This document shows, piece after piece, positions 2,296 to 29,985 of a DNA stretch of 54,260 nt. The DNA comes from Lysobacterales bacterium. Its GTDB lineage: Bacteria > Pseudomonadota > Gammaproteobacteria > Xanthomonadales > SZUA-36. A model generated the notes under the pieces. The model worked only from the letters and a program-made list of their open reading frames with translations, was not told where the DNA came from and ran no database searches. The first letter of the stretch is position 1. Every line of letters begins with the position of its first letter. The stretch lies in the NCBI GenBank assembly GCA_013042835.1, contig JABDPJ010000197.1, positions 1 through 54,260 of the forward strand, written 5' to 3'. Made by a program: the position numbers and the translations under genes.

Positions 2296-2501
2296 GCGGA
2301 AAATTCTCTTATTGTTCCGGTATGGAATAACCGATTGCAGTGATTATGCTACACCTTTAGAATAATTTATTCCTCTCACTTCCAGGCGCTTCAGTTCATG
2401 TTAAGACTTCACCATGAATCGCTTTCTCCGGCAATTCCAAGCCTGCCGGTCATGCTGGCTGTTGCGCCGTGGCGACAGTATCTCACACGGTCACACGGTT
2501 G

Positions 2502-3908: not shown

Positions 3909-3950
3909 CACGCGCCTCCTGATTTTCAGGCCCTGGCTGCCTGGCAACCG

Positions 3951-5036: not shown

Positions 5037-5073
5037 TGCCCCGTCACCATCGCTGAATCAGAGTTCTTCATCA

Positions 5074-6717: not shown

Positions 6718-6757
6718 GTGTGTATCCTGGAAAAATTTATCAACATGCGTAAGGAGT

Positions 6758-8134: not shown

Positions 8135-8289
8135 GAATTACGGTAATCCTTGGTGCATTCGGGTGTTGTTTTTACCGGCAACCCGCCGAACATCGACGTC
8201 GCACGGTGAGGTTTTTAGTAATTATATATTCCTGCGAAACACGTCTATAATCATATATTATTTTTCCGGTCGCAGGCGAGATTAACAGC

Positions 8290-9549: not shown

Positions 9550-9594
9550 CAACTGTATATCCGGTGTACCGGCCGAACGTGGCTGGCCGGAGTC

Positions 9595-10434
9595 CTAGAT
9601 TGCTTCCACGGCCTTGCGACTGAGCGCGAGCAACTCCCTGGCATGCCTGTCCCGTTTCAGCATCCAACTGAACAGAACATCCACCACGTGCTGTTGCGAG
9701 GCACTGGAAATGATCTGCGGCACCTGGAAGCTCCCCTCGTGATTGACGCAAAACAGGCGTATGTCCGCCAGCGAACGGACCGGGTTGGCATTGTAATTGG
9801 TCAGGGAAATAACCGTCGTGCCGGCCTTCTTGGCCTGTCGGGTAATCTGCACCATTTTTGGCGATTGGCCGGCGTATGAGATGACAAAAACCGCATCCCC
9901 CGGACCCAGGGTGGCAATACTGGATAGCTGGATATAGGTGTCCACTTCCGCGATCACCGATTTACCGATCTGTATCAGGTTACTGGCGAAATTTCTCGCC
10001 ACCAGCGAACCGGCGCCCAGCGCAACAATCTGTATCCTGCCACTTTTCTCCAGGACTTTGACCGCGGCGAGCAGGCGCTCCTCGTCATTCAGTTCCATGG
10101 TAGTCAGCAAGGCTTCGTTCTTGTCATTGTAAAGCGATTGGGGAACGGACCCGGTCCCCGTTTCGGTCGCCTGACCGGTTTCATTGGGGCGTTCGTCGGT
10201 TTCATTCTTGACCACTGCCTCGTGGATGGCCAGCTTGAGGTCCGTGAAGCCGCGGTAATTCAGTTTCTGGCTGAACTTGATGATACTTGACTGGCTGACT
10301 CCCACCGCGGCGGCGAGGTTTTGCGATGAGTAGTCCCTGATCAATGCAGCATTACGGAGGATGAAATCCGCAATCTTCTTTTCGTTGGCTGACAACTCCT
10401 CCCGAACGGCCCGCATTTTCACAAGACAGGACAT
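9595..10434 (-). CDS. RpiR/MurR-family transcriptional regulator (HTH + SIS domain)
   Basis: 279 aa with an N-terminal HTH_6-like segment (LSANEKKIADFILRN ... SQSSIIKFSQKLNYRGFTDLK). The C-terminal SIS domain has IVALGAGSLVA. Confidence 0.85.
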   Translation of the reverse strand: MSCLVKMRAVREELSANEKKIADFILRNAALIRDYSSQNLAAAVGVSQSSIIKFSQKLNYRGFTDLKLAIHEAVVKNETDERPNETGQATETGTGSVPQSLYNDKNEALLTTMELNDEERLLAAVKVLEKSGRIQIVALGAGSLVARNFASNLIQIGKSVIAEVDTYIQLSSIATLGPGDAVFVISYAGQSPKMVQITRQAKKAGTTVISLTNYNANPVRSLADIRLFCVNHEGSFQVPQIISSASQQHVVDVLFSWMLKRDRHARELLALSRKAVEAI

Positions 10435-14102: not shown

Positions 14103-15080
14103 TCAAACTGTCTGGTAGTAAAGATTTTGCGGATGATTCGCCTGCGCAAAGAAAAACCAGCGCTCCAGGACGAGGCCCGCATACTGGACCAGGAAAGCCA
14201 GTACCAGCAGAGCCGGCGAGGCCGCCACCAGGCCGCCTGCAAGCATTACCAGCGGAACGGGAAAGACCAGTAGCAGGAACAGCCACTTGATGTTTTTGTA
14301 CTTGCGCTGTGAAGCGCCGTGAAAATATTCACGCGTATTGAAGGAGCCGCCCATCGCGCCCTGCGCTTTCTGCTCAATTCTGCTGTGGCGGACGCCGATG
14401 GCTGTCTCCATCGTTGACTTTGGCTGCAGGCTGGCATTGCGCACCAGGCTGGCGGAACGGCCAATCAGGGCCAGCACGGTCAGGATAATGGCCCAGGCGC
14501 CGAAGAAGCCGGTCTGCGCCGACTCCTGGTAAGCGGCGAAACCCGTTACCAGCGTGAATCCCGAAGCCCATCCCAGCAGCGTGTAATTGATCACGGTCCA
14601 CGGCGTTGCCCACTCCTGCAACATCTTGATACAGGCATAGATCATGCCGGTGCACAGGAACAAGGCGAAACAAAGCACTGTCGCGACAGCGCCCGCGAGC
14701 AGTGACAGGTCGACCGGAAAAGAGTCTCCCAGTGTAAACAAAACTGGATTCCAGCCCGTGAAATGCAACAACCCCCAGGCAGCGACCGAGGCCATGAAAA
14801 CCGGCAGCACAATAACCTCACGCGACATCCATGACGTGCGCCAGCGAGCCGCTGAGCGCCAGGCGCGCTCCGGACGACCGAGGTGGAAAAATGAACTACC
14901 CAGACCCGCCACCAGCAATGCCAGCGAAATCAGGCTGCCCAGGACATAAAACTGGCCGGAACTTTCCGCCGGTAACAATTTGAAGACCGAATATAACTGC
15001 CCCGTGTAGAGCGCCAGGAACAGGCCCTGGCCGGCGCCGATAAGAGTGGTCAGAAAAATGATTGAAAATGCGGGATGCAT
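14103..15080 (-). CDS. DmsC-type membrane anchor subunit of a Mo-oxidoreductase (SoeC-like)
   Basis: 325 aa and polytopic (MHPAFSIIFLTTLIGAGQGLFLAL...). It is the last gene of a three-gene A-B-C cluster. Confidence 0.7.
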   Translation of the reverse strand: MHPAFSIIFLTTLIGAGQGLFLALYTGQLYSVFKLLPAESSGQFYVLGSLISLALLVAGLGSSFFHLGRPERAWRSAARWRTSWMSREVIVLPVFMASVAAWGLLHFTGWNPVLFTLGDSFPVDLSLLAGAVATVLCFALFLCTGMIYACIKMLQEWATPWTVINYTLLGWASGFTLVTGFAAYQESAQTGFFGAWAIILTVLALIGRSASLVRNASLQPKSTMETAIGVRHSRIEQKAQGAMGGSFNTREYFHGASQRKYKNIKWLFLLLVFPVPLVMLAGGLVAASPALLVLAFLVQYAGLVLERWFFFAQANHPQNLYYQTV

Positions 15081-15101
15081 GATGGTTTCCTTCGTATCCG
15101 T

Positions 15102-15833
15102 TTACCAGCTGGTCGTCTCGTCAAGTGTCGGTTCGCTATCGTCCGGCATGGGTTTCCGACGTTCTTTTCTGAGCGGATTGTCGGCGCGCTCCAGTTCATC
15201 TTCGTGGATGGTAATGCTGACTTTCTGCCGTGGCAGGTAATGATTGGCGGGCTTTGTACCCCACTCCGGCATGAGTTGGTAACCGCCGCTCTCCCTGATG
15301 GCGACAGCGACCTCGGAGTCCGGGTCATTGACGTCGCCAAACAGGCGCGCCTCGGCCGGGCAAGCAAGCACACAGGCCGGTTTACGTTCGCTTTCGGGCA
15401 GCGACTCGTCGTAAATCCGGTCGACGCACAGCGTGCACTTCTTCATGATCTTCTGATGCGCATCCAGTTCCCGCGCGCCATAGGGACAGGCCCAGGAACA
15501 GTAGTTGCAACCGATGCACTTGTCACTGTCGACCAGCACGATACCATCGGACTCGCGCTTGTAGCTGGCGCCGGTCGGACACACCGGTACGCAGGGCGGA
15601 TCTTCGCAATGCAGGCAGCTCTTCGGAAAATGAACGGTTTCGGTATCCGGAAATTGTCCGACCTCGAAGCTTTGCACGCGGTTGAAAAAGGTACCAACCG
15701 GGTCAGCACCGTAGGGATTCATATCAGACAGGTAGCCCGCCGTGCCGGAGGTGTTCCACTCCTTGCAGCTGGTGACGCAGGCATGACAGCCAACACAGAC
15801 ATTGAGATCGATGACCAGTGCCAGTTGAGTCAT
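15102..15833 (-). CDS. 4Fe-4S ferredoxin-type electron-transfer subunit (DmsB/PsrB family; SoeB-like)
   Basis: 243 aa with four Cys clusters: CVGCHACVTSC, CLHCEDPPCVPVC, CIGCNYCSWAC and CTLC...C. The start overlaps the stop of the catalytic subunit gene (ATGA). There is no Tat motif. Confidence 0.85.
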   Translation of the reverse strand: MTQLALVIDLNVCVGCHACVTSCKEWNTSGTAGYLSDMNPYGADPVGTFFNRVQSFEVGQFPDTETVHFPKSCLHCEDPPCVPVCPTGASYKRESDGIVLVDSDKCIGCNYCSWACPYGARELDAHQKIMKKCTLCVDRIYDESLPESERKPACVLACPAEARLFGDVNDPDSEVAVAIRESGGYQLMPEWGTKPANHYLPRQKVSITIHEDELERADNPLRKERRKPMPDDSEPTLDETTSW

Positions 15834-18745
15834 GACCTGCCTCCTTTGCCAGCGAAGTAGGTTAACCAGCGGCTGGGCTTCCTGTCTGTCATCTGCCCGG
15901 GAACGGAGGGCAAGGTATCGAACTGCGGTGAGCTGACCTTCTCCTCCCCCGCCCCTGCCGGGTAGATGCGCACCCGGACGTCAAACCAGCCGGCCTGGCC
16001 GGTAATCGGGTCGGAATTGGACAGGTGATCGCCGTCTTCTGATGGCGGCAACTCCTCGCTGATGAGGTGGTTGAGCAAAAAGCCTTTCTTAGCCTCGTTG
16101 GCATCGCCGTCCAGCGACCATGCGCCCGATGCTTTGCCGATAGCATTCCAGGTCCAGACCGTACCCGGTTCGACAGCTTCGGAATGCCGGCACAGGCAAC
16201 GAACTTTGCCGTGCATGGACTCGACCCACATCCAGCCACCGTCCTCGATGCCTGCTGCCTGCGCCGTCTTCGTATTCACGTACAGGAAGTTGTAGGTATG
16301 GATCTGCCGCAGCCAGGCGTTTTGCGAATCCCATGAGTGGTACATCGCCATGGGCCTCTGGGTCAACGCGTTGAGCGGGTATTTTTCCAGGTCGGATTGT
16401 AATGCCTCCAGGGGCTGCGAGTAGAACGGCAGCGGATCAAAGTGTCTTTCCACACGCTTGCGTAAATGATCGGGCGGCTGCCTGGTATCTGATTTGCCCT
16501 GGGCGGCGAGGCGAAACTTCTGCAAAACCTCGGAATAAATGTGAATGTTGATCGGTTCGGTATAACGCAGCAGCGCGTGGCGTTTCGCCCACTCGAGATA
16601 ACCCTGGTTCCAGTTGCGCATGTACTGGTAAGACCTCGGCAATCGATACTGAAACGCGCAGTTGTTCTTGGCGTACATCTCCCATTGTTTCGGGTTAGGC
16701 TCACCTTTCATGAACTTGTCGCCGTCCTTACCCCGCCATCCGGCCAGGAAGCCGATACCGGAACCCGGCGCCGTCTCGTAATTGACCACGAAGTCGGCGT
16801 AGTCACTGAACTTCGGACTGCCGTCGGCGTTGGTGAATGCAGGTAATTTCAGCCGTCCGGCCAATTCAATCAGCACGTCCTGGAACGGCCTGCACTGGCC
16901 GGTCGGTGGCAGCACCGGCACCCGCACGGAGTCGGCCGGACCTTCATAAGCGGAAATCGGCCGGTCCAGCATCGACATGACGTCGTGGCGTTCCAGGTAA
17001 GTGGTGTCGGGTAAAACCAGGTCCGCGAAGGCCACCGTTTCCGACTGAAAAGCGTCAGCGACGATAATGAACGGGATTTTGTATTCGCCGTCCTCTTCCT
17101 TGTCGACGAGCATTTCCCGCACGCCGGAGGTGTTCATACTGGAGTTCCAGGCCACGTTGGCCATGAACAGCATCAGCGTGTCAATTTTGTACGGGTCTCC
17201 CCGCCACGCATTGGTGATCGCGTTGTGCATCATGCCGTGCACCGACAGTGGAAACTCCCACGAGAACGCCTTGTCGAGGCGCACCGGGCTGCCGTCGTCA
17301 TTGACGAACAGGTCGTCCGGATCGGCCGGGAAACCCAGTGGCATCCCGTCCAGCGGCGTATTCGGCTGCACCGCCCGTGGATCGTTTGGCGGCTTGGCGC
17401 AGGGAGGTATCGGCCGCGGGAACGGCGCCTTGTGGCGAAAACCGCCGGGCCGGTCGATAGTGCCCAACAGGCTCATCAGGATCGACATGGCGCGGATGGT
17501 CTGGAAACCATTCGAGTGCGCCGCCAGGCCACGCATGGCATGAAACGCCACCGGGTTACCGGTGACGGTCTGGTGTTCATCACCCCAGGTATCGGTCCAG
17601 GCTATCGGCAGTTCAATTTTCTGATCACGCGCCGTAATTCCCATCTCGCGGGCCAGGCGAACGATCGTTTCCTCAGGTATGCCGGTGATTCCAGATGCCC
17701 ACTCGGCGGTATATTCGCTGACACGCTCGACCAGCAACTGGAAAGACGGTTTCACCGGCGTGCCATCCTCGAGTTCGTATTCACCCAAAAAGTAGGGGTC
17801 CACGCCCGGTGTATGGGTGGATATCGGAATATTCAGCTCACGGTCCCACCACAGTTTGTTCTGCGGATCAAAACAACCTTCCTCGTGCGGCACTTCAAAA
17901 CGCACGAACATGCCGTACTCGGATGAATTTTCATCCATGTTGACCAGTTCCGGCGCATTTGAGTACTGCGTCAGGAACTCCCGGTCATAGAGGCCCTGGC
18001 GAATGACCTCATTGATCAGGGCCAGGAACAGTGCGCCGTCGGTGCCCGGTTTGATCGGTACCCATTCGTCCGCTATGGCCGAGTAACCGGTGCGCACGGG
18101 GTTGATGGAAATGAATTTACCGCCCTGTCGTTTGAAATGGGCTATTTCCGTTTTGAGCGGGTTGGAATGGTGGTCCTCAGCCGTACCGATCATGACGAAC
18201 AGCTTGGCGCGCTCCAGGTCGGGCCCGCCAAATTCCCAGAACGAACCACCGATCGTATAAATCATTCCGGCCGCCATATTGACCGAGCAGAAACCACCGT
18301 GAGCCGCATAGTTGGGCGTACCGTATTGCTTGGCGAACAGGCCCGTCAGTGCCTGCATCTGATCGCGCCCGGTAAACAAGGCAAGCTTCTTCGGGTCACT
18401 GCCGCGCAAATGACCCATGCGCTCTTGCATGATTTCAAGCGCCTTGTCCCAGGAAATTTCTTCGAAATCACTCTCGCCCCGCTCACTGCCGGATTTGCGC
18501 ATTAACGGCCTGGTGATACGCGCCGGGCTGTACTGCTTCATGATGCCGCTCGAACCCTTTGCACAGATCACCCCCTTGTTGAGCGGATGGTCGGGGTTGC
18601 CCTGGATATAACGAACCTCACCGTCCCGCAGTGTCACGCGGATGCCGCAACGGCAGGCGCACATGTAACAGGTTGTGTTTTTGACCTCTACCTTGCTTTG
18701 TTCATCGAGTTTCTTTGACAGGGGGTCATGTATCGGATTGGACAT
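15830..18745 (-). CDS. Molybdopterin (bis-MGD) oxidoreductase catalytic subunit without Tat signal (SoeA-like sulfite dehydrogenase candidate)
   Basis: I trimmed ORF 15830..18832 to ATG 18745 (MSNPIHDPL...). It has an N-terminal FS0 cluster motif CYMCACRCG...ICAKG, is about 972 aa, and has no twin-arginine motif in either possible N-terminus. Confidence 0.75.
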   Translation of the reverse strand: MSNPIHDPLSKKLDEQSKVEVKNTTCYMCACRCGIRVTLRDGEVRYIQGNPDHPLNKGVICAKGSSGIMKQYSPARITRPLMRKSGSERGESDFEEISWDKALEIMQERMGHLRGSDPKKLALFTGRDQMQALTGLFAKQYGTPNYAAHGGFCSVNMAAGMIYTIGGSFWEFGGPDLERAKLFVMIGTAEDHHSNPLKTEIAHFKRQGGKFISINPVRTGYSAIADEWVPIKPGTDGALFLALINEVIRQGLYDREFLTQYSNAPELVNMDENSSEYGMFVRFEVPHEEGCFDPQNKLWWDRELNIPISTHTPGVDPYFLGEYELEDGTPVKPSFQLLVERVSEYTAEWASGITGIPEETIVRLAREMGITARDQKIELPIAWTDTWGDEHQTVTGNPVAFHAMRGLAAHSNGFQTIRAMSILMSLLGTIDRPGGFRHKAPFPRPIPPCAKPPNDPRAVQPNTPLDGMPLGFPADPDDLFVNDDGSPVRLDKAFSWEFPLSVHGMMHNAITNAWRGDPYKIDTLMLFMANVAWNSSMNTSGVREMLVDKEEDGEYKIPFIIVADAFQSETVAFADLVLPDTTYLERHDVMSMLDRPISAYEGPADSVRVPVLPPTGQCRPFQDVLIELAGRLKLPAFTNADGSPKFSDYADFVVNYETAPGSGIGFLAGWRGKDGDKFMKGEPNPKQWEMYAKNNCAFQYRLPRSYQYMRNWNQGYLEWAKRHALLRYTEPINIHIYSEVLQKFRLAAQGKSDTRQPPDHLRKRVERHFDPLPFYSQPLEALQSDLEKYPLNALTQRPMAMYHSWDSQNAWLRQIHTYNFLYVNTKTAQAAGIEDGGWMWVESMHGKVRCLCRHSEAVEPGTVWTWNAIGKASGAWSLDGDANEAKKGFLLNHLISEELPPSEDGDHLSNSDPITGQAGWFDVRVRIYPAGAGEEKVSSPQFDTLPSVPGQMTDRKPSRWLTYFAGKGGRS

Positions 18746-18919
18746 AAGAGTCTGCCTGTTGGGCCCGGTCCTGGCCGGAAAACGGCCATCTGCCGGACAG
18801 TTTTTCTGGTTGCTGCCGGGTTCGCAGCACACTGCTTCATAATAAACCAGATTATTACATATTAGATAATTTTAATTTACGTTAATTTTTCTTCGCTGCT
18901 AACACGCAACACGTCCTGA

Positions 18920-20404
18920 TCAATGAGCTTTTGTGGCCCGGTTATGCGACCAGATCCGCAGCGCGTTGAGTTGTTCTGACATGGTCTTCGACAATGGCAC
19001 GATGCGATAAATATTATGGATAAGATCATCATAGGTGATCTCGCGCCCGTCCGTGAACGCATCGATCCGCGCCGCCCTGACCATCTGCTCGATCTCGGCG
19101 GCGGTCCAGCCGTTCATGACCTTGGCGAGGTGGTTCAAATCGAACTCTTCCGGATCCCCGCCCTGGCCGAGTATGTGGATGCGCAGGATATCGATGCGTG
19201 CCGGCGCCTCTGGCAGGTCGACGAAGAACAACTGGTCGAACCTCCCTTTGCGGATCATTTCCGGCGGCAGGATCTCAATCCTGTTGGCCGTCGCAGCCAC
19301 GAAAACGTTGGCCGGCTTTTCCTGCATCCAGGTCAGGAACGATGAAAAAATGGTCATGTTGCCGCTGGTGGCGGAGTCGTTCAAAAAACCGAAACTGTTT
19401 TCAATTTCATCGATCCACAGCACGACCGGAGCGGCATTCTCGGCGGCACGGATAGCGCGCTCCCAGGCCACTTCGGGCGCGCCCCATCCACCTGACATGA
19501 TCTTGTTCATATCCAGGCGGATCAACGGCAGGCCCCAGACCGACGGTATGGTCTTGGCCGCCAGTGACTTGCCGCAACCACTGACGCCCATCATCAGGAT
19601 ACCGGCGGGCACATCTATCCGGGCGGCTTGCGCCTCCTTGGTGAAAAGTTTCTGCCGGGAAATCACCCAGCTTTTCAGTTTGCTGAGCCCGCCAATCTTG
19701 TCGATATCATATTTCTTGGTGATAACCTCGAGGCAGTTTTCCTTCATCAACAGCTGCGCTTTTGCGAGATTAATCTCAGCCAGTGCCGCGTCAACATCCA
19801 CTATCTTTTCACTGACCAGTTGGTGGAAAAGGTCACGGGTTTCGTTGGATGAAAGCCCTTGCGTTGCATACGAAACCCTGTCCAGCCACTCGTCGGAAAC
19901 CCGCTGTTCCTCGCCAAACCCGGAGTTCAGCGAGCCGAGCATACCTCTTAGTTCATCCGCGTCCGGCAAAGGCAGTTCAAGCAGGTATACCTCCTTGCTC
20001 AAGCCCGGGGGAATATTGATCGAAGGATGGGATACAACCATGCTGCCGGGCCGTACCGACAGGTGGTCATACACATCCCGCAACGCACGCACCAACGCCG
20101 GCCTCGATTCAAACAAAGCCGGCAGGTCTTTCATCAGGCAGATGGCGTCAACGCTCTCGCTGACGACAAATGACAGCGCCTCTACCGGATCCAGTAACTG
20201 CCGGTCTGCACCCGGGCCGCTGGTAAAACCGAGAGCCGCAGTCCATTGCCAAACCGGGCGGTCATCACCGAAGAGCTCTTGTGAAGCCCTGGCAAGCATT
20301 TGTTCGAGGCGTTCTTCCTCCCAGGTCACCACGTAAATGAGTGGTGATCCTGCAGCCAGTGTCCGGGAAAGTTGTTCCGAGGGTTTCACGCTTGATTCGT
20401 TCAT
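18920..20404 (-). CDS. Ycf46-like AAA+ ATPase
   Basis: Classical AAA module with Walker A GVSGCGKS, Walker B VLWIDEIE and second region of homology ATANRIEILPPEMIRKGRFD. The N-terminal ~250 aa begins ...SPLIYVVTWEEERLEQ, as in Ycf46-type proteins. Start 20404 (MNESSV...) places that motif at the usual distance from the N-terminus. The longer ORF start at 20482 would overlap the divergent gene's extension. Confidence 0.8.
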   Translation of the reverse strand: MNESSVKPSEQLSRTLAAGSPLIYVVTWEEERLEQMLARASQELFGDDRPVWQWTAALGFTSGPGADRQLLDPVEALSFVVSESVDAICLMKDLPALFESRPALVRALRDVYDHLSVRPGSMVVSHPSINIPPGLSKEVYLLELPLPDADELRGMLGSLNSGFGEEQRVSDEWLDRVSYATQGLSSNETRDLFHQLVSEKIVDVDAALAEINLAKAQLLMKENCLEVITKKYDIDKIGGLSKLKSWVISRQKLFTKEAQAARIDVPAGILMMGVSGCGKSLAAKTIPSVWGLPLIRLDMNKIMSGGWGAPEVAWERAIRAAENAAPVVLWIDEIENSFGFLNDSATSGNMTIFSSFLTWMQEKPANVFVAATANRIEILPPEMIRKGRFDQLFFVDLPEAPARIDILRIHILGQGGDPEEFDLNHLAKVMNGWTAAEIEQMVRAARIDAFTDGREITYDDLIHNIYRIVPLSKTMSEQLNALRIWSHNRATKAH

Positions 20405-20591
20405 TGCATTTATCCGGGCCGCATCCTTTAGCAATGCTAATAATAGCCAATTCGCAGGGTGTAGCCTCATGACCTGTGTCATCGCCGCGTCAAATGAAGC
20501 GCACGGAAATCCTCGCCGGCAATTGACTCAAGTCATTGCCGGGGGAAAAGCGTGTGGATATAGTTTCGCGCAACAAAAAAGAACGGGCGCC

Positions 20592-23500
20592 ATGAAATCC
20601 GTTGCAGCGCTGGCCAGCCAGGCAAGAGGTTCATCCACTGGTGCTCGAACCAGCCGCGCAAATATGCCCGTTAAACAGGAAAAGTCCCGCCTGATGGAAG
20701 GCTGGGTGATTGCCAATCACATTCTTGTTTCGTTTCATGTGGCATTTATCTCCTCCGTGTTAGCCATCCCGGACACTACGACAACCAGGGAAGCGGTGTT
20801 GCATTTCATCTTCCTGAGCCCGGAGACCATTGTTTCTGCTGTATTTACTTATGCGGTTTTCCATTCGGCCATTGCATTGCATGAGTTAGGGCACTTCCTG
20901 GAAGCTGCCAGATTGCGCGCACTCAATGATTCTATCCAGGCCAGGGTCGATTCCCGGCTTGCTGCGCCCCGCCCGGCTCGCTGGCGTTATCTTTTACTAT
21001 TGTTCCTGCAAATTCCCTATGGATTTGCTGTTGGCGTGAAGCGCGAGGGCCTGAATTACTATCCGGACGCACCGTATAATCTTGCCGTCGCTGCTGCCGG
21101 TCCGAGAGCGAGCCTCAAGGTCGCCCGCCTCGCGCTGCCGGTTGCCTTGGCCCTGCTGGCCATTGGCTTGCTGCATGATATTTCGTCAGCGCTCAACCTC
21201 GGCCGCTTGCTGCTCGGCCTGGGGATCGTGACTGGTCTTGATTTTTTGCTAGCGGACCCGGGTAAATACCGCGAATTCAAACGCCGGGAAAAGCTTGCAA
21301 GCACGGCGTCCTCCGCACTGCCGGTTGCTAATCGCTGGGCCGGCATGGCCGTCGACGCAAAATCCAGGATTGAACAACGAAGCATGCAGGAAGCGACCCA
21401 TCCACGCCTGGGTACCGTCAGGGCGCCGTGGCAGTTCCGCAATTGCGGCATGGGCGGCCGTCATACCGAAAAGGAATACCCGGAATCCAATATAAGCATG
21501 CAGGAGGCCATGTTCCTGATACTCGGTGCGGAGGATTCGCAGGAGGCGCAGGAAATGACCGTCCGCCTGCAGAACCGCCTCAAGGAAATCCTCGAGAAAG
21601 CGGAAGGTTGCCGGGTCATGGGAATCGGTCTTGAAGGTGGACTGGCGCCCTATGTCGATCGCGGGGACTACGAAATTCCTGAATTGCGCTTGTGGGCGAT
21701 GATGAAACAAACCATCGAAGAGTGCGGTTACCGGCCTGGTATCGATGTAGCCATCGCGCTCGACCCTGCCCTGTCCGAGCTGGAAATCGCCTACCGAGAG
21801 GAATTCGATCTGCCAGACAGCGTCGGTATGTACCTGTTCTGGAGGGACCATTCCAAAAAGGTCATGGACCGTGACGCCGTATTGGCAATCTACGAGCAGG
21901 CGATCAACGAACACGATATCCCGATTCTTTCGATCGAAGACGGCTTTTCAGAAGATGATCTTGAGGGTTGGAAAAAACTGCTGGCCAAACTAGGTGACCA
22001 TGTGCTGGTGATCGGTGATGACCTCGTAACCACAAACGACCGCACGATCGAGAAAGCGGCTGACGCCGGCCTGATCAACTCCGTTCTGGTTAAAGCCAAC
22101 CAGATAGGCTCCCTGTACGAAACTCTTCTGGCTGTGCTGGTGACCCTCGGTAAAGGCTTGAACCTGATCGTCTCACACCGCTCGAAAAGCCCCAACGACG
22201 ATATGGAGGCACACATTGCCCTGGCAACCAACGCACTGGGCCTGAAGGCCGGCGGAGGTGCGAATACCGAGCGCCTGGTCAAGTACCAGGCGGTAACCAC
22301 GCAGATGGAACGGGTCGTCGATGCCGGTATACAGGAACCAAACCTGCCGGGCTTCGCAACCATTGAAAACCTGAGGGCACGTGAAGAACCAACCAACGCC
22401 GGTATCCCGACGGTTGGAGTAGACGTCCAGTTGGCCTTGCCGGGTGAAAGCGCGGATACCGGTGTCCGCCTGAAATTTCATGGCGCGACCCCTTTGGGCA
22501 CCTCATCCGGAACCGGCGAGGCCGTGCACTTGGTCGACCGGGTATTCGAACGGGCGGAATACCTGGAAGCGGTTGAACAATATTCGCAATTACTCACGGA
22601 GATGGAGCCCGGGGTTTTCGCCTTCAAACCGGGTGTGACCCGGGAGCAGGCTGAGTCGGCCGGCGACGCAGCGTTGCTGGCCTTGTTCAAACGGACCCAA
22701 CGCTACGAGGGCAAGGGCTGCTTGAACGCTGTCGATCATGTGCATGAATTTGCCGCGCCGTGTTTCGAAGACAGGAACGTTGCCGATTGGGGCTTACTGG
22801 ACATCGACCGCACGCTGCTGAGGCTGGAGCTGGACACTGCTAAGCGACGTAAAAAGCTGCCTGCCACTGCTGACCATGAGGCCGAAATTCGCGTCATGCA
22901 GCGCAAACAGAACATTGGCATGAACGCTATCCTGTCGATCTCGCTTGCCATGGCGCGTGGCGTCGCACATGTTCGTGGACAGGAACTCTACGAGTTCTTG
23001 CGCGAGGAAATGCTGGTTATAATCGAACGTCTCGCCAGCGCGCATGACGTCGCAATCCAGGGCAGCCGCTTCGACGACTACCTTGCGGCCTTGCGCGAAG
23101 TAAACGCGAAACTGGAGCAACAACACATGCCACTTTACAAGTCTCTGCGCGAAGTAACCGGAGTGTACAAGCAGGACGGCAAGCAAAGTCGCGCGCCGGC
23201 TCCCTTCAGCGCCAACTGGCACGTCATTCCCAGCGAAGACGAGTCGTTCAGTTCACAGGAACAGGCAGAGATCAGCAGCCTGAACCATGCGCTGGTAAAA
23301 ACCTATCTCGTCGGGGATAGGCCGGAGGAGAACAGGTTCATACTGCGTCATTACCTGAAAACCATGCGCCTGCTGGGGCAACGTTACCGTATGTTTGAAA
23401 TAACCAACCACCGGGTTTTCAAATTTGAAGACAAGCTCATCGTTCCCTACGATGCACAAGGCAGGTTATCCATATACGTACTGACAAAAAAATCCCAGCG

Positions 23501-26500
23501 CCTGGTCAATGAACTGCGGGTGCCGCACGGCACACTGGTAACAGACGAGTTGATCGCAGATTTGGCCGGCATGCAGGGTGACGCGATTGATCTGGAACGG
23601 GAAATCTATCATTTGCATGTGGATGACATGCCCGCAATCCAGGTGTCACGCCTGCGTGACCTTGCCAGGTTGCTAAGGCGGCTGAACAACTGCGGCAGTC
23701 GCCATGAAGCGGTTTACCTGTTGCGTTTCCTGGTTGCCAGGCTTTGCAGCAGTTCCTATCGCGGCATGCCCGGCGCCAAGAATCTGAAACCGGAAATCAC
23801 CAGGGTGCGGCAGGAATTGGCCGAATTCATGAACGGGCCATTTGCGGAACGCCTGCGCCTGCCGACACGCATCCTCGTGAGAAGCATCTCGGGGCTGGTA
23901 TCCCAGCCAAAATTGATTGACGAAGTCTGGCAGGACACGATAGACCTTTCCGAGGTCATGGTACGGGGCAGCACCATCACGAATGAAATCCGCCGCAGCA
24001 CGCACCATGCAATGGGCAAACATACGCTGCGTCTGGCACGCGCCTACCTGCAATGGCTGCAGTTGGGTGAGGCTGAATTTCCGGATCCGGAACGGGAGAT
24101 TCCGGTTACTGCCGATGAAGCGGCGCGCGATAATCCGAAGGTGATAGCACTCGTAGAACGGATTGTCGCCGATCTTGAACAACTCATGGGTAGCTCGCAA
24201 ATTGCCCGGCGGTTGTTGGAGTGGCGTGACGCTTATGCGGACGAGTTGTTGCGTTGTGAATCAACAAATACCCTTGAAGAGGAACTCGAATCACTGACTA
24301 CCAAGGGCATTCGCACGCAAAATCAATGGGTTTATCAGCACAGACTGCGTAGCCTGACCAGCAAGTTGCGTGACGGCAACTGGTCAGACAAGGCCCGCAA
24401 ACCATTTGGTGCAAGCCTGAAATTCCTGCAGGAAAACTTGCCCGACGGCATTGACTTTCCCGCCGCTGAAATAGAAAGCAGGGCGCGCAAAGCCGTTGAC
24501 GCTTTCTGCGAACAGATCAGGCATGATCACCAGGACGCCCTGTTCAGCGCGCTTGACGGGCTGCTCGGCTACTACGAGGGCGGTCAGAATTTTAAGGCCT
24601 TCACCCGCAGTTGCGAACTGCGGCGCGAACTGGAAACGCTGGCCGGAGACGGCGTATTTGACACCCAGCGTTACCTCCTGCACCAGCTTGACTGCATTCT
24701 CGAGGAGTTGGGGTTTTTCGCTCTCAGGCACGTTGCATCGGATTATGCTGACAACGGCATGAAACTCGAAGAATGCCTGCAAATCGTACACCGCTGTGCC
24801 CGCAACCTGGACCGCGATGGACTGTACTCACGGGAACTGTGGGATTTATCGACCATGTTGATCAACCCTATGCGGACGCGTTCAGAACTGCTTGACGTAT
24901 TGGAGCAGATTCAACGTAACTACCACCGTCTCGTTCACCGCATCAGCAATGCCTACGAAGTGATGGCCGCGCACCTGGGCTATGGGACCGACGAGATGCG
25001 CGCGGTACTTGCCAACTTCCAGCGCACCATGCATGACCTGAATAGCCTCGTGCACTTTTCAGACCTGGCGCGCACCTACCTGTCCGAGAATGACCGTGAA
25101 ATAGAACGCTCGGAGGTGGGCGATCCCGGCACAGACCCATGGGATTTTGTGCATCTTTCGCACCGGGAAGACATCAACCGCCGGGTAGAGAGCAGAGATC
25201 CTGTCAGTTTGCAGGCGCGCTATGGCGGCAAGGGAAGCGGCCTGATCTATATATCCTATCTGGGCATTCCGACACGTGACGGCTTCATCATTCCCACCGT
25301 TTTACCCCGCCTGGATTTGCAAAACAGGGAAAAGGAGCGGTTTGAAAAAGAAGTGAGAAAGCATGTCCGCCTGCTGGAAAGCGATATACAACGCAATGAG
25401 GGAACCTCGCTGAAGCTCGGTGACCCCGAAGCACCGTTACTACTCGCCGTGCGCGGAGGTTCACCATTCTCAATGCCGGGAATGCTGGCAACCATGGTCT
25501 TTGTCGGCATGACCGATGCCGTGGCCGATGCCCTGGCCGTTGAGGATGAATGGTACGCCTGGGACGCCTACCGGCGCTTCCTCGTTTCGTTCTCCGCGGC
25601 AGTCTGGAACCTCGATATCGAAGCCCTTGACCTGGTGGAAAAAACCAAGCGCCAGCATGGCGTCGATCTCAAGACCGACCTGCCGGGCGCGGCCATGCGC
25701 GAGGTCGTTGAAGCGACCAAGCAGGCGATTCGAGACGCAGGACACAAAGATGAATTCGAGCATCTCACCGTGGATGCGGATCTGCAGTTACAGACTGCGT
25801 TACAGGCAGTACACAGTTCCTGGAACCGGGACCGTGCCCGCCAGTACCGTTCTATCAAGCACCTCAGCGAAGGCTGGCACACGGCAGCCACGGTGCAGCA
25901 AATGGCTTCCGGTAACCGGACCAACCGCCAGGAGCTAAAGCCGGGTATTGACGAAATGCGTATATCTCTTACCGGTGTTATTCCCAACACGCAGGTGCAG
26001 TCGACGGGATTCCGTGAGTTTACCGGTGATGTGAAATTCCAGGCCTGCGGCGATGACCTGGTGGGCGGCATGACCGCGGCCAAGTCTTTCGAGCCGGTGC
26101 AGAGACTGCATGTGCTGGCTCCCATGCTGGAACGGAAACTCAACCATGTCAGCGCCCGGTTGCGGCGCTTCCTGGGATCGGATGCGGAGATAGAATTCAC
26201 GGTTGACCGTGGTGTGCTCAGCGTATTGCAGGCGCGCAGCGCACAAATGGACCAGCAATTCCACAACCCACGGACGTTCAAAGACCCGGGGACTTCGAGC
26301 GGGCGCGGAATTGGCATCAGTGGCGGAGCCTTCCGCGGCCTGGTGGCATTCAACCAGGCCGATGTGACGCGCCTCGGCAAGGCCATGGATGAACAGTCAG
26401 AGGAAGTCGATGGCATATTGCTCGTGCTGGAGAACCCGGTACCCGATGAAATTCCGTTGATCCTTTCGGTCGGAGGCTTGCTGGCAGCGCGGGGTGGTTC

Positions 26501-26747
26501 GACATCACACGCCGCTGTCTGCGTTCACGGTATCGAAGATAAGCAATACAGCGCGGTGCTCGGTGTGCCGGAATTGCGGGTCGGCACGGCCAAGGCCACG
26601 CTGACAGGGGAAGACGGAGCAATCACACACACCCTGCATGCGGGCGACATAGTCTCCATTCACGGGCAGACCGGTGAAGTATTTGCCGGCTGGCGTGAGG
26701 TCATCAGCATTGAAGCTGATGCGCCAGCCGCCACGAAACATCCATAG
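20592..26747 (+). CDS. Giant multidomain protein: S2P/M50-like membrane metalloprotease region + circularly permuted enolase + ~700-aa unassigned region + PPDK/PEP-synthase-type ATP-grasp + phosphohistidine swivel domain
   Basis: Uninterrupted ORF 20337..26747 (2136 codons). The 5' end is uncertain, with candidate ATGs at 20592, 20664 and 20694. The first 85 codons overlap the divergent ATPase ORF extension and look non-coding. Domain motifs are listed in the sub-features below. Confidence 0.85.
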   Translation: MKSVAALASQARGSSTGARTSRANMPVKQEKSRLMEGWVIANHILVSFHVAFISSVLAIPDTTTTREAVLHFIFLSPETIVSAVFTYAVFHSAIALHELGHFLEAARLRALNDSIQARVDSRLAAPRPARWRYLLLLFLQIPYGFAVGVKREGLNYYPDAPYNLAVAAAGPRASLKVARLALPVALALLAIGLLHDISSALNLGRLLLGLGIVTGLDFLLADPGKYREFKRREKLASTASSALPVANRWAGMAVDAKSRIEQRSMQEATHPRLGTVRAPWQFRNCGMGGRHTEKEYPESNISMQEAMFLILGAEDSQEAQEMTVRLQNRLKEILEKAEGCRVMGIGLEGGLAPYVDRGDYEIPELRLWAMMKQTIEECGYRPGIDVAIALDPALSELEIAYREEFDLPDSVGMYLFWRDHSKKVMDRDAVLAIYEQAINEHDIPILSIEDGFSEDDLEGWKKLLAKLGDHVLVIGDDLVTTNDRTIEKAADAGLINSVLVKANQIGSLYETLLAVLVTLGKGLNLIVSHRSKSPNDDMEAHIALATNALGLKAGGGANTERLVKYQAVTTQMERVVDAGIQEPNLPGFATIENLRAREEPTNAGIPTVGVDVQLALPGESADTGVRLKFHGATPLGTSSGTGEAVHLVDRVFERAEYLEAVEQYSQLLTEMEPGVFAFKPGVTREQAESAGDAALLALFKRTQRYEGKGCLNAVDHVHEFAAPCFEDRNVADWGLLDIDRTLLRLELDTAKRRKKLPATADHEAEIRVMQRKQNIGMNAILSISLAMARGVAHVRGQELYEFLREEMLVIIERLASAHDVAIQGSRFDDYLAALREVNAKLEQQHMPLYKSLREVTGVYKQDGKQSRAPAPFSANWHVIPSEDESFSSQEQAEISSLNHALVKTYLVGDRPEENRFILRHYLKTMRLLGQRYRMFEITNHRVFKFEDKLIVPYDAQGRLSIYVLTKKSQRLVNELRVPHGTLVTDELIADLAGMQGDAIDLEREIYHLHVDDMPAIQVSRLRDLARLLRRLNNCGSRHEAVYLLRFLVARLCSSSYRGMPGAKNLKPEITRVRQELAEFMNGPFAERLRLPTRILVRSISGLVSQPKLIDEVWQDTIDLSEVMVRGSTITNEIRRSTHHAMGKHTLRLARAYLQWLQLGEAEFPDPEREIPVTADEAARDNPKVIALVERIVADLEQLMGSSQIARRLLEWRDAYADELLRCESTNTLEEELESLTTKGIRTQNQWVYQHRLRSLTSKLRDGNWSDKARKPFGASLKFLQENLPDGIDFPAAEIESRARKAVDAFCEQIRHDHQDALFSALDGLLGYYEGGQNFKAFTRSCELRRELETLAGDGVFDTQRYLLHQLDCILEELGFFALRHVASDYADNGMKLEECLQIVHRCARNLDRDGLYSRELWDLSTMLINPMRTRSELLDVLEQIQRNYHRLVHRISNAYEVMAAHLGYGTDEMRAVLANFQRTMHDLNSLVHFSDLARTYLSENDREIERSEVGDPGTDPWDFVHLSHREDINRRVESRDPVSLQARYGGKGSGLIYISYLGIPTRDGFIIPTVLPRLDLQNREKERFEKEVRKHVRLLESDIQRNEGTSLKLGDPEAPLLLAVRGGSPFSMPGMLATMVFVGMTDAVADALAVEDEWYAWDAYRRFLVSFSAAVWNLDIEALDLVEKTKRQHGVDLKTDLPGAAMREVVEATKQAIRDAGHKDEFEHLTVDADLQLQTALQAVHSSWNRDRARQYRSIKHLSEGWHTAATVQQMASGNRTNRQELKPGIDEMRISLTGVIPNTQVQSTGFREFTGDVKFQACGDDLVGGMTAAKSFEPVQRLHVLAPMLERKLNHVSARLRRFLGSDAEIEFTVDRGVLSVLQARSAQMDQQFHNPRTFKDPGTSSGRGIGISGGAFRGLVAFNQADVTRLGKAMDEQSEEVDGILLVLENPVPDEIPLILSVGGLLAARGGSTSHAAVCVHGIEDKQYSAVLGVPELRVGTAKATLTGEDGAITHTLHAGDIVSIHGQTGEVFAGWREVISIEADAPAATKHP
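20694..21266 (+). other. Domain: hydrophobic N-terminal region with site-2-protease (M50)-like motifs
   Basis: HELGH (nt 20880-20894) sits inside a hydrophobic stretch AVFTYAVFHSAIALHELGHFLEA. A downstream AVAAAGPRASL (AGP motif) follows. Further hydrophobic helices are present (LALPVALALLAIGLL, LLLGLGIVTGLDFLLAD), with a possible LD third-ligand motif. Confidence 0.55.
21414..22316 (+). other. Domain: enolase C-terminal TIM-barrel equivalent (placed first)
   Basis: These motifs align by eye to canonical enolase: PWQFRNCGMGGRH / MQEAMFLILGA, GLEGGLAP, AIALDPALSE, ILSIEDGFSEDDLEGW, VIGDDLVTTN, VLVKANQIGSL, IVSHRS and GLKAGG..TERLVKY. Confidence 0.8.
22374..23006 (+). other. Domain: enolase N-terminal domain equivalent (placed after the barrel)
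   Basis: GIPTVGVDV...GATPLGTSSGTGEAVHLVD corresponds to GNPTVEVE...VPSGASTG.HEA.E.RD. YEGKGCLNAVDHVHEFAAPCF corresponds to GKGV..AV.NVN..I.P. NIGMNAILSISLAMARGVAHVRGQELYEFL corresponds to LGANAILGVSLA..KAAA....PLY..L. Confidence 0.75.
25134..26261 (+). other. Domain: PPDK/PEP-synthase N-terminal nucleotide-binding (ATP-grasp) domain
   Basis: Motifs: YGGKGSGLIYISYLGIPTRDGFIIPT, LLLAVRGGSPFSMPGMLATMVFVGMTD, AWDAYRRFLVSF, ATVQQMASGN...LTGVIPN...FQACGDDLVGG and EIEFTVDRGVLSVLQARS. Confidence 0.8.
26289..26711 (+). other. Domain: PEP-utilising-enzyme mobile (swivel) domain with catalytic His
   Basis: GLLAARGGSTSHAAVCVHG, with the His codon CAC at 26508-26510, matches the GG.TSHAA.VAR phosphohistidine signature. 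The protein ends ~75 aa later, so no PEP/pyruvate-binding barrel follows. Confidence 0.8.
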
Positions 26748-26852: not shown

Positions 26853-27482
26853 ATGTCGGCAAACTTTTCTGCTAAACCGAATCAGGGTGAGATGAACCCG
26901 GTTGACAGGGCAGATTATCCACTGGCTAACAGTGAAAGAATCCAGTTGATGTTTGGTTCCTGCGCCATCGAGGTGCTCGAGAATGACCCGGGTATCCGGG
27001 TATCAAGCCTTTACAGCACACACGATGGCCTGAGGACAAACCGCACTTTTGCCGTGGTTGCCTACCCGGAAGTGATCGAGCACGCCTTCAGGGAAGAACA
27101 CGATGCAATCGTCAAGGGGCAGTCGATCGGTACGTTGTTCAAGGAACGGGGATGGGTGCTTGAAAAACACCACGAGTATTTTGGTGAGATTGACGTACCT
27201 GCTGACCTGTTCAGCACCGGTGCACAAGCCCTTGACCGAAAAAGCCGCTCGGCGATTCATGTTTACACGCTGGTGGTCAAAAAACAGGACTCTGAATTCA
27301 AGTACGCTTCTATCGCTGAAATTCATAACCCCGAATTCCTGCGACTCCATGACCTGGTAAAGATCTACGGTCCGGCATGTGCAGATGCCGGAGCTCACAG
27401 GGACAGGTTGGACGGTTTTCTGATGGTCGTCGAGTCGCGCATCAAGGCCCTTGGCGCCGTGAAGTTTCAAGCACAGCAATGA
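26853..27482 (+). CDS. Hypothetical protein (209 aa), no family recognised
   Basis: The ORF has GGAG ~12 nt upstream of ATG 26853. Its TGA overlaps the ATG of the following yceH-like gene (ATGA at 27479-27482), which argues for real translation and coupling. Confidence 0.6.
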   Translation: MSANFSAKPNQGEMNPVDRADYPLANSERIQLMFGSCAIEVLENDPGIRVSSLYSTHDGLRTNRTFAVVAYPEVIEHAFREEHDAIVKGQSIGTLFKERGWVLEKHHEYFGEIDVPADLFSTGAQALDRKSRSAIHVYTLVVKKQDSEFKYASIAEIHNPEFLRLHDLVKIYGPACADAGAHRDRLDGFLMVVESRIKALGAVKFQAQQ

Positions 27483-29048: not shown

Positions 29049-29501
29049 TCAAATCTCCACGTCTTTGTACTTGTCTGTTTTACTTTCAATCAGCCTTTGC
29101 CGCCAGACCGAAATCAGCAGCAGCGCCAGGCCACCATAAATGGCAATTATGAGCAGTTTCATTCCCACGGGTATGTCGGGATTGAAGATAAAAAAACCCA
29201 CGCCGATACCGGCGACAATCAGCAAGCCGGCGATAAAAAGTAACCAGCCTATGCCGCGGGTGAGTTCCACGGTTGAATCATTCATGCTTTCCCTCCACTG
29301 GTCTTCGCCCACCTCGCTCAGGCGGGCCGTTCCAACACGTTCCCGAAGTTCGCGCAGGCCGGCCAGGTTTTCCCGGCACTCGTCACAATTATCGCAATGC
29401 AGCGTTACAAGCTGCCGTTGCTGCTGGGTCAGTTCGCCGTCGATAAACCCGGATAGCAAATCGCCCACGTGTTGGTCTATATGTCGGTTCCTGTCAGACA
29501 T
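29049..29501 (-). CDS. Membrane anti-sigma factor (zf-HC2 type)
   Basis: 150 aa with an N-terminal zinc-finger anti-sigma motif LLSGFIDGEL....HCDNCDECRENL and two C-terminal TM helices. It overlaps the sigma-factor gene by 8 nt. Confidence 0.8.
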   Translation of the reverse strand: MSDRNRHIDQHVGDLLSGFIDGELTQQQRQLVTLHCDNCDECRENLAGLRELRERVGTARLSEVGEDQWRESMNDSTVELTRGIGWLLFIAGLLIVAGIGVGFFIFNPDIPVGMKLLIIAIYGGLALLLISVWRQRLIESKTDKYKDVEI

Positions 29502-29985
29502 CTTGAATTAATTCCTCCTTCAGTGCCATACGCGCGCGGTGCAGGCGGGACATGACCGTTCCCGGGGCAACCTCCAGGACATCTGCAATGTCCGCATAAG
29601 ACAGGTCCATGTAGTCCCGCAAGACGATAATTTGCCTTTGATCTGCCGTCAGCTTTGCCAGGGCAAGTTGCAAGCCGCGGTCGCGCTGTGAAATTTCCAA
29701 TGAGGCTTCGGGTCCCGGACGGTGATCAGCCAGTTTCCCGACATCTGCGCCACCAGGACGACGACGCCTCATCATATCGATACAATGATTGCGAACGACA
29801 CGCAGAAACCACGGCGCAAACGGCCCGTTCGCAGCGTTGTAGGACATGGGTTTCCCGAGTACTTTCACGAAGGCGTCGTGAACCGCATCTGCTGCGTCAT
29901 CGGTGTTACCCAGCAACTGTATCGCCAGCGCGTGGGCGCCGTTTCCAAGTTGTGCAATCTGTTGTCGCATGTCGTTCTTTTTCAT
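29494..29985 (-). CDS. ECF (group IV) sigma-70 family RNA polymerase sigma factor
   Basis: 163 aa with region 2 (PWFLRVVRNHCIDMMRRR) and region 4 HTH (LSYADIADVLEVAPGTVMSRLHRAR). Confidence 0.85.
   Translation of the reverse strand: MKKNDMRQQIAQLGNGAHALAIQLLGNTDDAADAVHDAFVKVLGKPMSYNAANGPFAPWFLRVVRNHCIDMMRRRRPGGADVGKLADHRPGPEASLEISQRDRGLQLALAKLTADQRQIIVLRDYMDLSYADIADVLEVAPGTVMSRLHRARMALKEELIQDV

Follow-up and report, generated by a model that had tools for sequence, protein, structure and literature searches.

A PPDK-type ATP-grasp and phosphohistidine cassette without a phosphoenolpyruvate/pyruvate barrel in a giant enolase fusion protein of uncultured bacteria: a candidate three-domain dikinase

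Introduction

Dikinases that work through a swivelling histidine domain are a small set of enzymes, placed at key points: PPDK and PpsA belong to central carbon metabolism, GWD has its place in the turnover of starch and RPH in resistance to antibiotics, and kinases that act on phenol and lignin monomers are members too. The present analysis concerns contig JABDPJ010000197.1 of a Lysobacterales bacterium (assembly GCA_013042835.1), a stretch of 54,260 nucleotides that in its whole length is called the window below, and within it a giant gene whose product ends in the ATP-grasp and phosphohistidine domains of PPDK and has no phosphoenolpyruvate (PEP)/pyruvate barrel belonging to them. Described relatives with a comparable cassette are RPH (rifampin phosphotransferase), HpeHI, CreHI and the phenylphosphate synthase PpsAB, in which ATP-grasp and swivelling His domains, fused or split, serve an acceptor domain that is not a barrel (PMC12167813, PMC4844700).

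The giant protein consists of five parts, namely an M50/site-2 protease (S2P)-like membrane domain, a permuted enolase, a central domain, the ATP-grasp and the swivelling His domain, in that order. The first two are referred to here as module 1 and the last three, about 1,180 residues, as module 2. We found no description of this family in the literature on enolase-dikinase fusions, on permuted enolases or under these domain names, nor any described precedent for the architecture of the whole gene; homologues stand in the databases only as 'enolase', 'PEP/pyruvate-binding domain-containing protein' or 'hypothetical', and current pipelines label the genes 'enolase' or 'PEP/pyruvate-binding protein'. 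A previous examination of the DNA without database searches (the sequence-only reading) had noticed the cassette and the missing barrel and had likened the arrangement to rifampin phosphotransferase. Here we report what alignments, structure models and surveys of genomes and metagenomes add to that observation, and weigh the explanations that it admits.

Results

The PPDK-type cassette

Residues are numbered from position 20337, the first codon of the longest open reading frame (ORF) in the ORF list, which runs to 26747 on the + strand and comprises 2,136 codons; 85 must be subtracted for a protein that begins at Met86. Positions 25134-26711 encode a PPDK-type ATP-grasp followed by a swivelling phosphohistidine domain (Table 1). 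Every motif named in the sequence-only reading was located where it had been placed: GGKG at residues 1630-1633, SMPGM at 1712-1716, YRRF at 1745-1748, QQMASGN at 1854-1860, GDDLVGG at 1905-1911, EFTV at 1953-1956, LQAR at 1964-1967 and GGSTSHAAV at 2053-2061, and the codon that it gave for the phosphocarrier histidine, here His2058, does read CAC.

When the protein was compared with PDB sequences by phmmer, its last 537 residues matched the Clostridium symbiosum PPDK (1kbl) with an E-value of 1.3e-44, in two stretches corresponding to PPDK residues 13-339 and 364-510, with the T-S-H of the motif lying on Thr453-Ser454-His455; the His domain also matched the isolated PPDK His domain 2fm4 (E 8e-8). 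In the same alignment K1632, R1706, E1951/E1953, Q1965 and R1967 correspond to PPDK K22, R92, D321/E323, Q335 and R337, the roles of these nucleotide- and phosphate-site residues being taken from the PPDK literature. Cassette motifs and residues are invariant in 90 full-length homologues, which are 43-85% identical over this part, and likewise in eight stand-alone relatives at 41-46% identity, such that the equivalents of PPDK K22, R92, E323, Q335, R337, T453 and H455 are invariant in sequences that are 41-85% identical. The sequence-only reading had made its claim depend on the context of the catalytic histidine, and this context survives careful alignment, GGSTSH2058AAV being aligned to PPDK T453 and H455 and invariant across phyla.

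Pfam models applied to the whole ORF recognized PPDK_N (4.4e-12) and the PEP-utilizers mobile domain (1.5e-5); the NCBIfam model for PPDK (TIGR01828) was matched only over profile positions 16-339 of 865, with 233 bits against a cut-off of 843, and the PEP synthase PpsA models (TIGR01418 and NF005057) gave 26-31 bits against cut-offs of 598-740. By these alignments the cassette is intact and under selection, and its resemblance to PPDK is a real observation, well beyond chance.

Absence of a PEP/pyruvate barrel

The stop codon follows 78 codons after His2058, and the protein thus terminates at about PPDK residue 520, just ahead of the linker to the PEP/pyruvate barrel. No match to PEP-utilizers_C (PF02896) was found by Pfam at E<=1 across the whole ORF. 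The region between enolase and ATP-grasp, spanning residues ~973-1590 (about 640 amino acids), matches no Pfam family, and a profile built from 35 sequences of it retrieved no match from the 177,635 distinct PDB sequences at a threshold as loose as E<=10.

An AlphaFold2 model of residues 937-2136, calculated from a 91-row alignment, has a pLDDT of 84.4 and a pTM of 0.84. After a disordered linker it shows two helices, a unit of five beta strands (~1020-1061) and then helices only (~1107-1587), the last amounting to about 480 residues of all-helix structure, mostly at pLDDT 85-95. Searched against the PDB with Foldseek, this model matched PPDK (1kbl) first, with an E-value of 1.8e-23 over 574 columns at 4.4 Å, followed by PEP synthase, the isolated PPDK His domain, rifampin phosphotransferase and HpeI; searched as a whole, it had no PDB match to the helical part beyond the PPDK region. 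The modelled His domain packs against the grasp as in the 1kbl/1dik conformer, in which this domain faces the nucleotide site (4.1-4.9 Å); superposed on PPDK structures from other states of the swivel, the model fits at 10-14 Å. In two AlphaFold2 models, the sole beta/alpha barrel to be seen is that of the enolase, and all Foldseek matches to the two models were of PPDK type or enolases.

The sequence-only reading had left room for a barrel hidden in the central region. This candidate was rejected on the Pfam result, on the lack of any PDB profile match at E<=10 and on the helices-only model, and the cassette has no PEP/pyruvate barrel of its own. That the protein should be a normal PPDK or PEP synthase, its barrel diverged or cryptic and other domains fused to it, is accordingly scarcely credible. 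Strong PPDK similarity in the first two domains is what recommends that explanation; against it stand the end of the chain near PPDK 520 with no PEP-utilizers_C, a confident all-alpha central model that has no PDB sequence match, and a TIGR01828 score far below the cut-off.

The central domain

Within the central domain about 30 polar or charged residues are invariant, in sequences down to 37% identity. Clusters among them are RILVR (R1178, R1182), NEIRRSTHHAMG (23982-24017), QLDCILEE (24684-24707) and MHDLNS (25029-25046), and the invariant residues include R1178, R1182, D1195, W1198, E1206, N1216-E1217, R1219-R1220 and H1223-H1224, together with R1429, R1445, E1456-E1457, C1480, Y1529, R1563 and H1566-D1567 further along. 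Invariance of this kind would fit an active or binding site better than a spacer. Throughout the family the central domain is joined to the ATP-grasp/His cassette, and it is this domain, not the enolase, that is the partner always travelling with the cassette. Because it forms a constant unit with the cassette and carries some 30 invariant polar residues, the central domain appears the likeliest third, acceptor domain. At the level of fold it is a new unknown.

Two remote homologues, P0207 (1,198 residues) and P0208 (1,489 residues), share the best-conserved ~155 central residues (hhalign probability 97%). In both, HEAT repeats come first and the central-like stretch next, followed by GWD1_pHisD and then PPDK_N, and the two seem to represent a further dikinase family that is uncharacterised.

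Distribution and modularity

At least 120 proteins, 51-86% identical and for the most part full-length (~2,020-2,130 residues), came from the initial protein search. At least 113 carriers were recognized in a scan of one genome per GTDB species, and all 80 of those listed are metagenome-assembled genomes (MAGs). Carriers belong to the Xanthomonadales/Lysobacterales and other Gammaproteobacteria, to Planctomycetota, Gemmatimonadota, Myxococcota and candidate phyla, to Acidobacteriota (Aminicenantes, Thermoanaerobaculia, Sulfomarinibacter), to deltaproteobacterial/Desulfobacterota-type lineages, and to Fermentibacterales and Krumholzibacteriia. When 1.84 billion representative proteins were searched with the central profile by hmmsearch, only 97 matched, among them full-length giants, fragments, and proteins of ~1,160-1,200 residues in which the central domain starts at about residue 10-35. 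Pfam scans of two such proteins (P0122, P0132) found PPDK_N and PEP-utilizers after the central domain and neither M50 nor enolase.

We typed 125 distinct loci from the genome and metagenome scans that had enough upstream sequence. Uninterrupted fusions account for 102 of these, three are split or frameshifted (L087, L089, L092), and in the remaining 20 module 2 stands by itself, the upstream sequence being free of enolase and M50 for at least 2.9 kb. Module 1 is missing, for example, from L085, L088 and L090. These stand-alone forms are polyphyletic, several being 84-89% identical to a fused form, and their proteins retain those central invariants that are open to checking. Where the modules are separate genes, module 1 genes end and module 2 genes begin where the giant protein has its disordered linker. 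In L087 they form a two-gene operon, module 1 before module 2, across a 98-nucleotide spacer that contains a plausible ribosome-binding site, and the same arrangement recurs in L172, from an Acidobacteria MAG, with a spacer of 20 nucleotides; L173 and L174 have module 1 without module 2 nearby. Among 118 proteins listed in a search with module 1, 94 are ~840-900 residues long and consist of the M50-like domain and the permuted enolase, on contigs of up to 409 kb, with HExGH kept in 90 of the 94 and SHRSKSPNDD in 91. Module 1 on its own is an abundant gene of ~870 residues (P0218-P0335).

Since fused, adjacent and solitary arrangements all occur, the window gene is a fusion of two autonomous, widespread and uncharacterised modules, in which module 2 is the constant unit and the enolase with the M50-like part is separable. 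An artefact of assembly or fusion was rejected, the gene being uninterrupted on 102 independent contigs and more than 100 full-length proteins coming from different sources. Two assemblies hold more than one copy: in a Myxococcales MAG (GCA_020431405.1) the fused giant gene (L069) is accompanied by a paralogue that consists of module 2 alone (L090), and the Lysobacter MAG DATHRJ01 has two copies, of which L028 is fused and L021 lies on a contig that starts inside the central domain.

A proposed reaction

The best explanation that we can offer, and one to which we give a little less than even confidence, is that module 2 constitutes the catalytic cassette of a swivelling-histidine dikinase that is new and has three domains, the central one providing the second swivel station. 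ATP bound in the grasp would pyrophosphorylate or phosphorylate His2058, and the His domain, which closes the chain and hangs on one linker, would swing to a second site formed by the central domain, where the invariant Arg, His, Asp, Glu and Cys clusters would bind an anionic acceptor, to which the phosphoryl group would pass. The reverse reaction, with formation of ATP, may also occur. Our data establish the domain composition, the intact catalytic residues, the lack of any barrel but that of the enolase, and the modularity; that phosphate is passed to the central domain, what the acceptor is and which way the reaction runs are what we infer here, and the role of the central domain as a station holding an anionic acceptor is drawn by analogy with RPH and HpeHI (PMC12167813, PMC4844700). 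The comparison with rifampin phosphotransferase made in the sequence-only reading, which had named both the enolase and the central region as candidate substrate domains, is consistent with all results and can now be sharpened to the central domain as the constant partner.

Module 1 would probably supply or remove the C3 phospho-acid involved. Our best guess at the chemistry is an interconversion of pyruvate and PEP coupled to that of PEP and 2-phosphoglycerate (2-PG), for which the central domain would be a non-homologous substitute for the PEP/pyruvate barrel. The PEP/2-PG/pyruvate node is suggested because fusion or operon linkage with a catalytically complete enolase recurs, the basis of this link being fusion in at least 102 loci, the operons L087 and L172, and the invariance of all enolase catalytic and metal residues.

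A permuted, apparently complete enolase

In canonical enolases the capping domain is N-terminal; in the giant protein the enolase N-domain follows the barrel, and the enolase is therefore, by alignment, circularly permuted. The barrel, at residues 372-655, matches PDB enolases with an E-value of 8e-44, and Foldseek superposes it on enolases at 3.4-3.7 Å. In the HMM alignment, enolase residues 5-54 correspond to residues 676-734 and enolase residues 103-135 to 856-888, with about 120 residues inserted between, and the AlphaFold2 model shows the capping domain as a beta-meander with helices. The equivalent of the Ser39 loop is TPLGTSSGTGEA at 22488-22523, in the capping domain. The catalytic and metal residues of yeast enolase are S39, H159, E168, E211, D246, E295, D320, K345, H373, R374 and K396. 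Residues H376, E390, E433, D476, E534, D561, K586, H614, R615, K637 and S723 of the giant protein align with enolase catalytic and metal sites and are invariant in the family; the enolase is thus complete in its catalytic residues. It scores 214 bits against the cut-off of 300 of the enolase equivalog model TIGR01060, and two family-specific changes close to its active site are nearly invariant, namely a five-residue insertion in the GGxH...QExM loop (GGRHTEKEYPESNISMQEAM) and the replacement of SHRSGETED by SHRSKSPNDD.

These features allow another place for the second station. His2058 might exchange phosphate with PEP or enolpyruvate at the two-metal site of the permuted enolase barrel, the central domain being a stator or spacer. 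Enolase binds PEP and stabilises enolate-type intermediates, its catalytic residues are all invariant here, fusion and operon linkage are frequent, and the loop insertion GGRHTEKEYPESNISMQEAM, the SHRSKSPNDD change, the permutation and the 120-residue capping insertion could together open the site to a protein partner. Nevertheless we consider this unlikely. The 20 loci with module 2 alone keep the checkable central invariants with no enolase nearby, module 1 is common as a separate gene and can lack module 2 in its vicinity, as in L173 and L174, and some 30 invariant polar residues would be unexpected in a mere spacer; furthermore, we know of no enolase that transfers phosphate to a protein histidine. 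Whichever of the two serves, central domain or enolase barrel, its replacement of the PEP/pyruvate barrel may yield a previously unknown enzyme leading from pyruvate to PEP to 2-PG.

The M50-like membrane domain

The N-terminal domain carries the M50-like motifs HELGH at residues 182-186 (20880-20894), NLAVAAAGP (21078-21104) and GLDFLLADPGKY (21234-21269). For the window copy the Pfam match to Peptidase_M50 (PF02163) is weak, with an E-value of 0.004 and 17 bits against a gathering cut-off of 27.2, while the same model matches 22 of 29 homologues at E<=0.1, the best at 2e-7; a profile of this domain had no significant match among PDB sequences. The His, Glu and His of HExxH, the AGP at 254-256 and the Asp of LDF at 301-303 are invariant in the family, and the domain is among the best-conserved parts of the protein, being 52-69% identical to the window copy in other lineages.

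Such conservation suggests a reading in which the cytoplasmic part makes no net metabolic conversion and is instead a sensor or switch that gates an M50-type intramembrane protease. As proposed, an S2P-type metalloprotease would be controlled by a built-in glycolytic sensor, the enolase site reading 2-PG or PEP by its occupancy, and the phosphorylation state of His2058, which would reflect ATP, AMP and PEP, acting as a switch through the helical domain. An ATP-binding CBS domain is thought to gate site-2 proteases of the SpoIVFB type, which offers an analogy. The invariant HExxH and Asp ligand, the abundance of module 1 (M50 with enolase) as a unit of its own and the lack of a conserved metabolic operon around the gene are consistent with such a role. 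A sensor, however, does not need the full invariance of catalytic acid/base residues and metal ligands that enolase and dikinase alike display; in 20 loci module 2 is found by itself, as a soluble protein; M50 membership of the window copy is weak; and no candidate substrate is conserved nearby. We therefore regard a gated protease as distinctly unlikely.

Gene limits and features

The first ~85 codons of the longest ORF overlap a divergently transcribed AAA+ gene. The real start is likely Met86 at 20592, which would yield 2,051 residues, with 20664 or 20694 as possible alternatives; Met86 is preferred because the database protein P0001 ('MAG Gammaproteobacteria bacterium, hypothetical protein'; 2,051 residues, 99.8% identical) begins there and because the upstream codons overlap the AAA gene. 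A 433-amino-acid ORF at 19035-20336 (+) is antisense to the AAA gene, and both it and the upstream 85-codon extension look like shadow or read-through frames, not genes. The linker between the modules has a pLDDT below 50 (residues 1-24 of the AlphaFold2 model) and low conservation.

Table 1. Positions in the window of the giant gene, its domains and the phosphocarrier motif.
Feature	Coordinates	Strand	Remarks
Whole giant gene	20592..26747	+	2,051 amino acids; modules 1 and 2 fused; more than 100 full-length homologues
M50/site-2-protease-like membrane domain	20688..21371	+	Residues ~118-345; at least 4 hydrophobic segments (hydropathy)
Enolase TIM barrel	21372..22301	+	Canonical enolase ~143-410; precedes enolase N-domain; Enolase_C 4.8e-49
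Enolase N-terminal (capping) domain	22362..23141	+	After barrel; ~120-residue insertion; Pfam Enolase_N
Linker between modules	23145..23252	+	Poorly conserved, low-confidence; split point in two-gene versions
Central domain, proposed third (acceptor) domain	23253..25106	+	Small beta unit ~1020-1061 and all-alpha part ~1107-1587
PPDK-type ATP-grasp nucleotide-binding domain	25155..26261	+	Pfam, NCBIfam, PDB alignment, Foldseek, invariant columns
Swivel phosphohistidine domain, last in protein	26304..26711	+	Pfam PEP-utilizers 1.5e-5; aligned to PPDK 364-510
GGSTSHAAV motif	26493-26519	+	In swivel domain
Phosphocarrier His2058 codon (CAC)	26508..26510	+	His1973 from Met86; aligned with PPDK His455; invariant

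Gene neighbourhood

No neighbour is common to the loci across phyla, the most frequent being a molybdopterin oxidoreductase in 14 of 83 loci. In the window it lies at 14103-18832 (-), a few kb upstream of the giant gene, with a DmsC-like anchor, and it is seen also at L002 and L003; the loci that have it include a distant relative with 41% identity in the central domain, and the sharing is weak. Neighbour clusters of the stand-alone copies (DUF5916, beta-lactamase-like, PGA_cap) reflect clade-local synteny only.

The divergent AAA+ ATPase of the window (520 residues, 18920-20482, -) gave generic IetA-like AAA matches in PADLOC. Homologues (tblastn, E<=1e-10) occur in 19 loci, which are gammaproteobacterial or closely related metagenome contigs. 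Five stand-alone loci of this kind keep the synteny of the window, with the AAA+ gene divergently upstream of the dikinase gene in all five, which were checked for position, and in four of them the AAA+ copy is complete and 76-80% identical. The link between the two genes may be functional or only synteny. A role in anti-phage defence was rejected: PADLOC found nothing for the giant protein, the AAA neighbour was matched only generically, and the pattern of conservation is contrary to it.

Directly 3' of the giant gene is an ORF of 209 amino acids (26853-27482, +) with no Pfam or PADLOC match, found by tblastn in five other loci, which are four Xanthomonadales, Lysobacterales or Gammaproteobacteria MAGs and one metagenome contig. 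At 29049-29985 (-), 2.3 kb downstream of the giant gene, two ORFs look by eye like an extracytoplasmic function (ECF) sigma factor and an overlapping membrane-anchored anti-sigma factor; the proximity of such a pair to an S2P-like gene is probably coincidental, because it is absent from the neighbour clusters common to related loci. Two unrelated loci, L001 (a Planctomycetota MAG; 1832-9895, 2,687 residues) and L002 (18353-24439, 2,028 residues), have a giant bacterial alpha-2-macroglobulin gene adjoining the giant dikinase gene or close to it.

Four neighbours, each a single case, agree with a PEP/pyruvate metabolic node, though anecdotally: a canonical-order enolase lies 16 nucleotides upstream of P0132, L172 has a malic enzyme-PTA gene at its side, L088 has a glycerate-kinase-like gene in its vicinity, and L064 is abutted by a PHO4 phosphate transporter. 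Most stand-alone copies, on the other hand, are without C3-metabolism neighbours, and this favours a further explanation, namely that module 2 phosphorylates an unrelated acceptor, be it a xenobiotic, a phenolic, a polymer or a protein, after the manner of RPH, phenylphosphate synthase/HpeHI, PigC/HapC or GWD, with the enolase fusion serving another purpose such as local substrate regeneration or anchoring. Swivelling-His cassettes do serve very different third domains (PMC12167813, PMC4844700), and the only remote relatives of the central domain are GWD-like proteins. Yet the cassette resembles PPDK (E 1e-44) far more closely than PpsA (4e-3), and RPH and HpeI are seen by fold only; fusion or operon linkage with a catalytically complete enolase is recurrent; and identities of 41-50% over ~1,180 residues between phyla suggest a core and not an accessory function. 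On balance an unrelated acceptor seems improbable.

Discussion

The dikinase in which the central domain is the second swivel station is the reading that we prefer, and several points weigh against it. Its acceptor is guesswork. No similarity to a known PEP/pyruvate site is detectable in the central domain, which could be a scaffold, and the homology of this domain to the helical region of GWD-like proteins would also fit a structural role. Most stand-alone module 2 genes have no enolase nearby; hence the enolase link may be confined to some members of the family, or the gene for the partner may lie elsewhere. The model leaves the role of the strongly conserved M50-like domain unexplained, and the gene neighbourhood is not conserved across phyla, so that context gives anecdotes only.

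Whatever the acceptor, a large and deeply conserved family from uncultured bacteria is added to the swivelling-His dikinases, and the window fusion is a Rosetta stone that ties a dikinase to a permuted enolase and an S2P-like membrane domain. If the acceptor is pyruvate or PEP, the PEP/pyruvate partial reaction would have been solved a second time, by non-homologous means, and the reconstruction of lower glycolysis and gluconeogenesis in MAGs from sediment and soil would change. If instead the cassette controls the protease, intramembrane proteolysis would be subject to a new type of metabolic control, and flux through lower glycolysis would be coupled directly to regulated intramembrane proteolysis in many uncultured phyla.

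Comparison with known systems shows what each part retains and what it has altered. The N-terminal part resembles site-2 proteases (M50; SpoIVFB with CBS) in its polytopic membrane domain, its HExxH, AGP and LD motifs, and the cytoplasmic metabolite-binding part that follows. Unlike these, the window copy matches the family weakly, LDG/NxxP is altered to LDFxxADxGKY, the cytoplasmic part is ~1,800 residues of enzyme domains, and protease activity is putative. With enolase (EC 4.2.1.11) the giant protein shares the barrel and capping fold and all catalytic and metal residues, but its copy is barrel-first, with the 120-residue capping insertion and five extra residues in the GGxH...QExM loop, and SGETED has become SKSPNDD; its score falls short of the equivalog cut-off, and it is fused to a membrane domain.

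The GWD-like proteins P0207 and P0208 (GWD1_pHisD with PPDK_N) have the ~155 shared central residues upstream of their His domain, as does the giant protein. In them, however, the order of His domain and grasp is reversed, HEAT repeats stand in place of the enolase, and the RRSxHH cluster is only partly kept (EIRDRIHN).

PPDK (EC 2.7.9.1; C. symbiosum 1kbl/1dik) is like the giant protein in having an ATP-grasp of three subdomains and then a swivelling His domain, at ~25% identity, with the nucleotide- and phosphate-site residues and the T-S-H motif conserved and a predicted fold that superposes at 4.4 Å. It differs in that the giant protein has no C-terminal PEP/pyruvate TIM barrel, its chain ending after the His domain, and has instead a new domain of ~640 residues before the grasp, with the enolase and the membrane domain before that; the His domain is consequently held by one linker, where that of PPDK is held by two. 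RPH and HpeI resemble module 2 by Foldseek only (E 4e-4 to 2e-2), and the third domains are without detectable homology, the central profile matching no PDB sequence at E<=10, that of RPH included. The order also differs, being third domain, grasp and His domain here and grasp, RIF-binding domain and His domain in RPH, but in both proteins the His domain is C-terminal.

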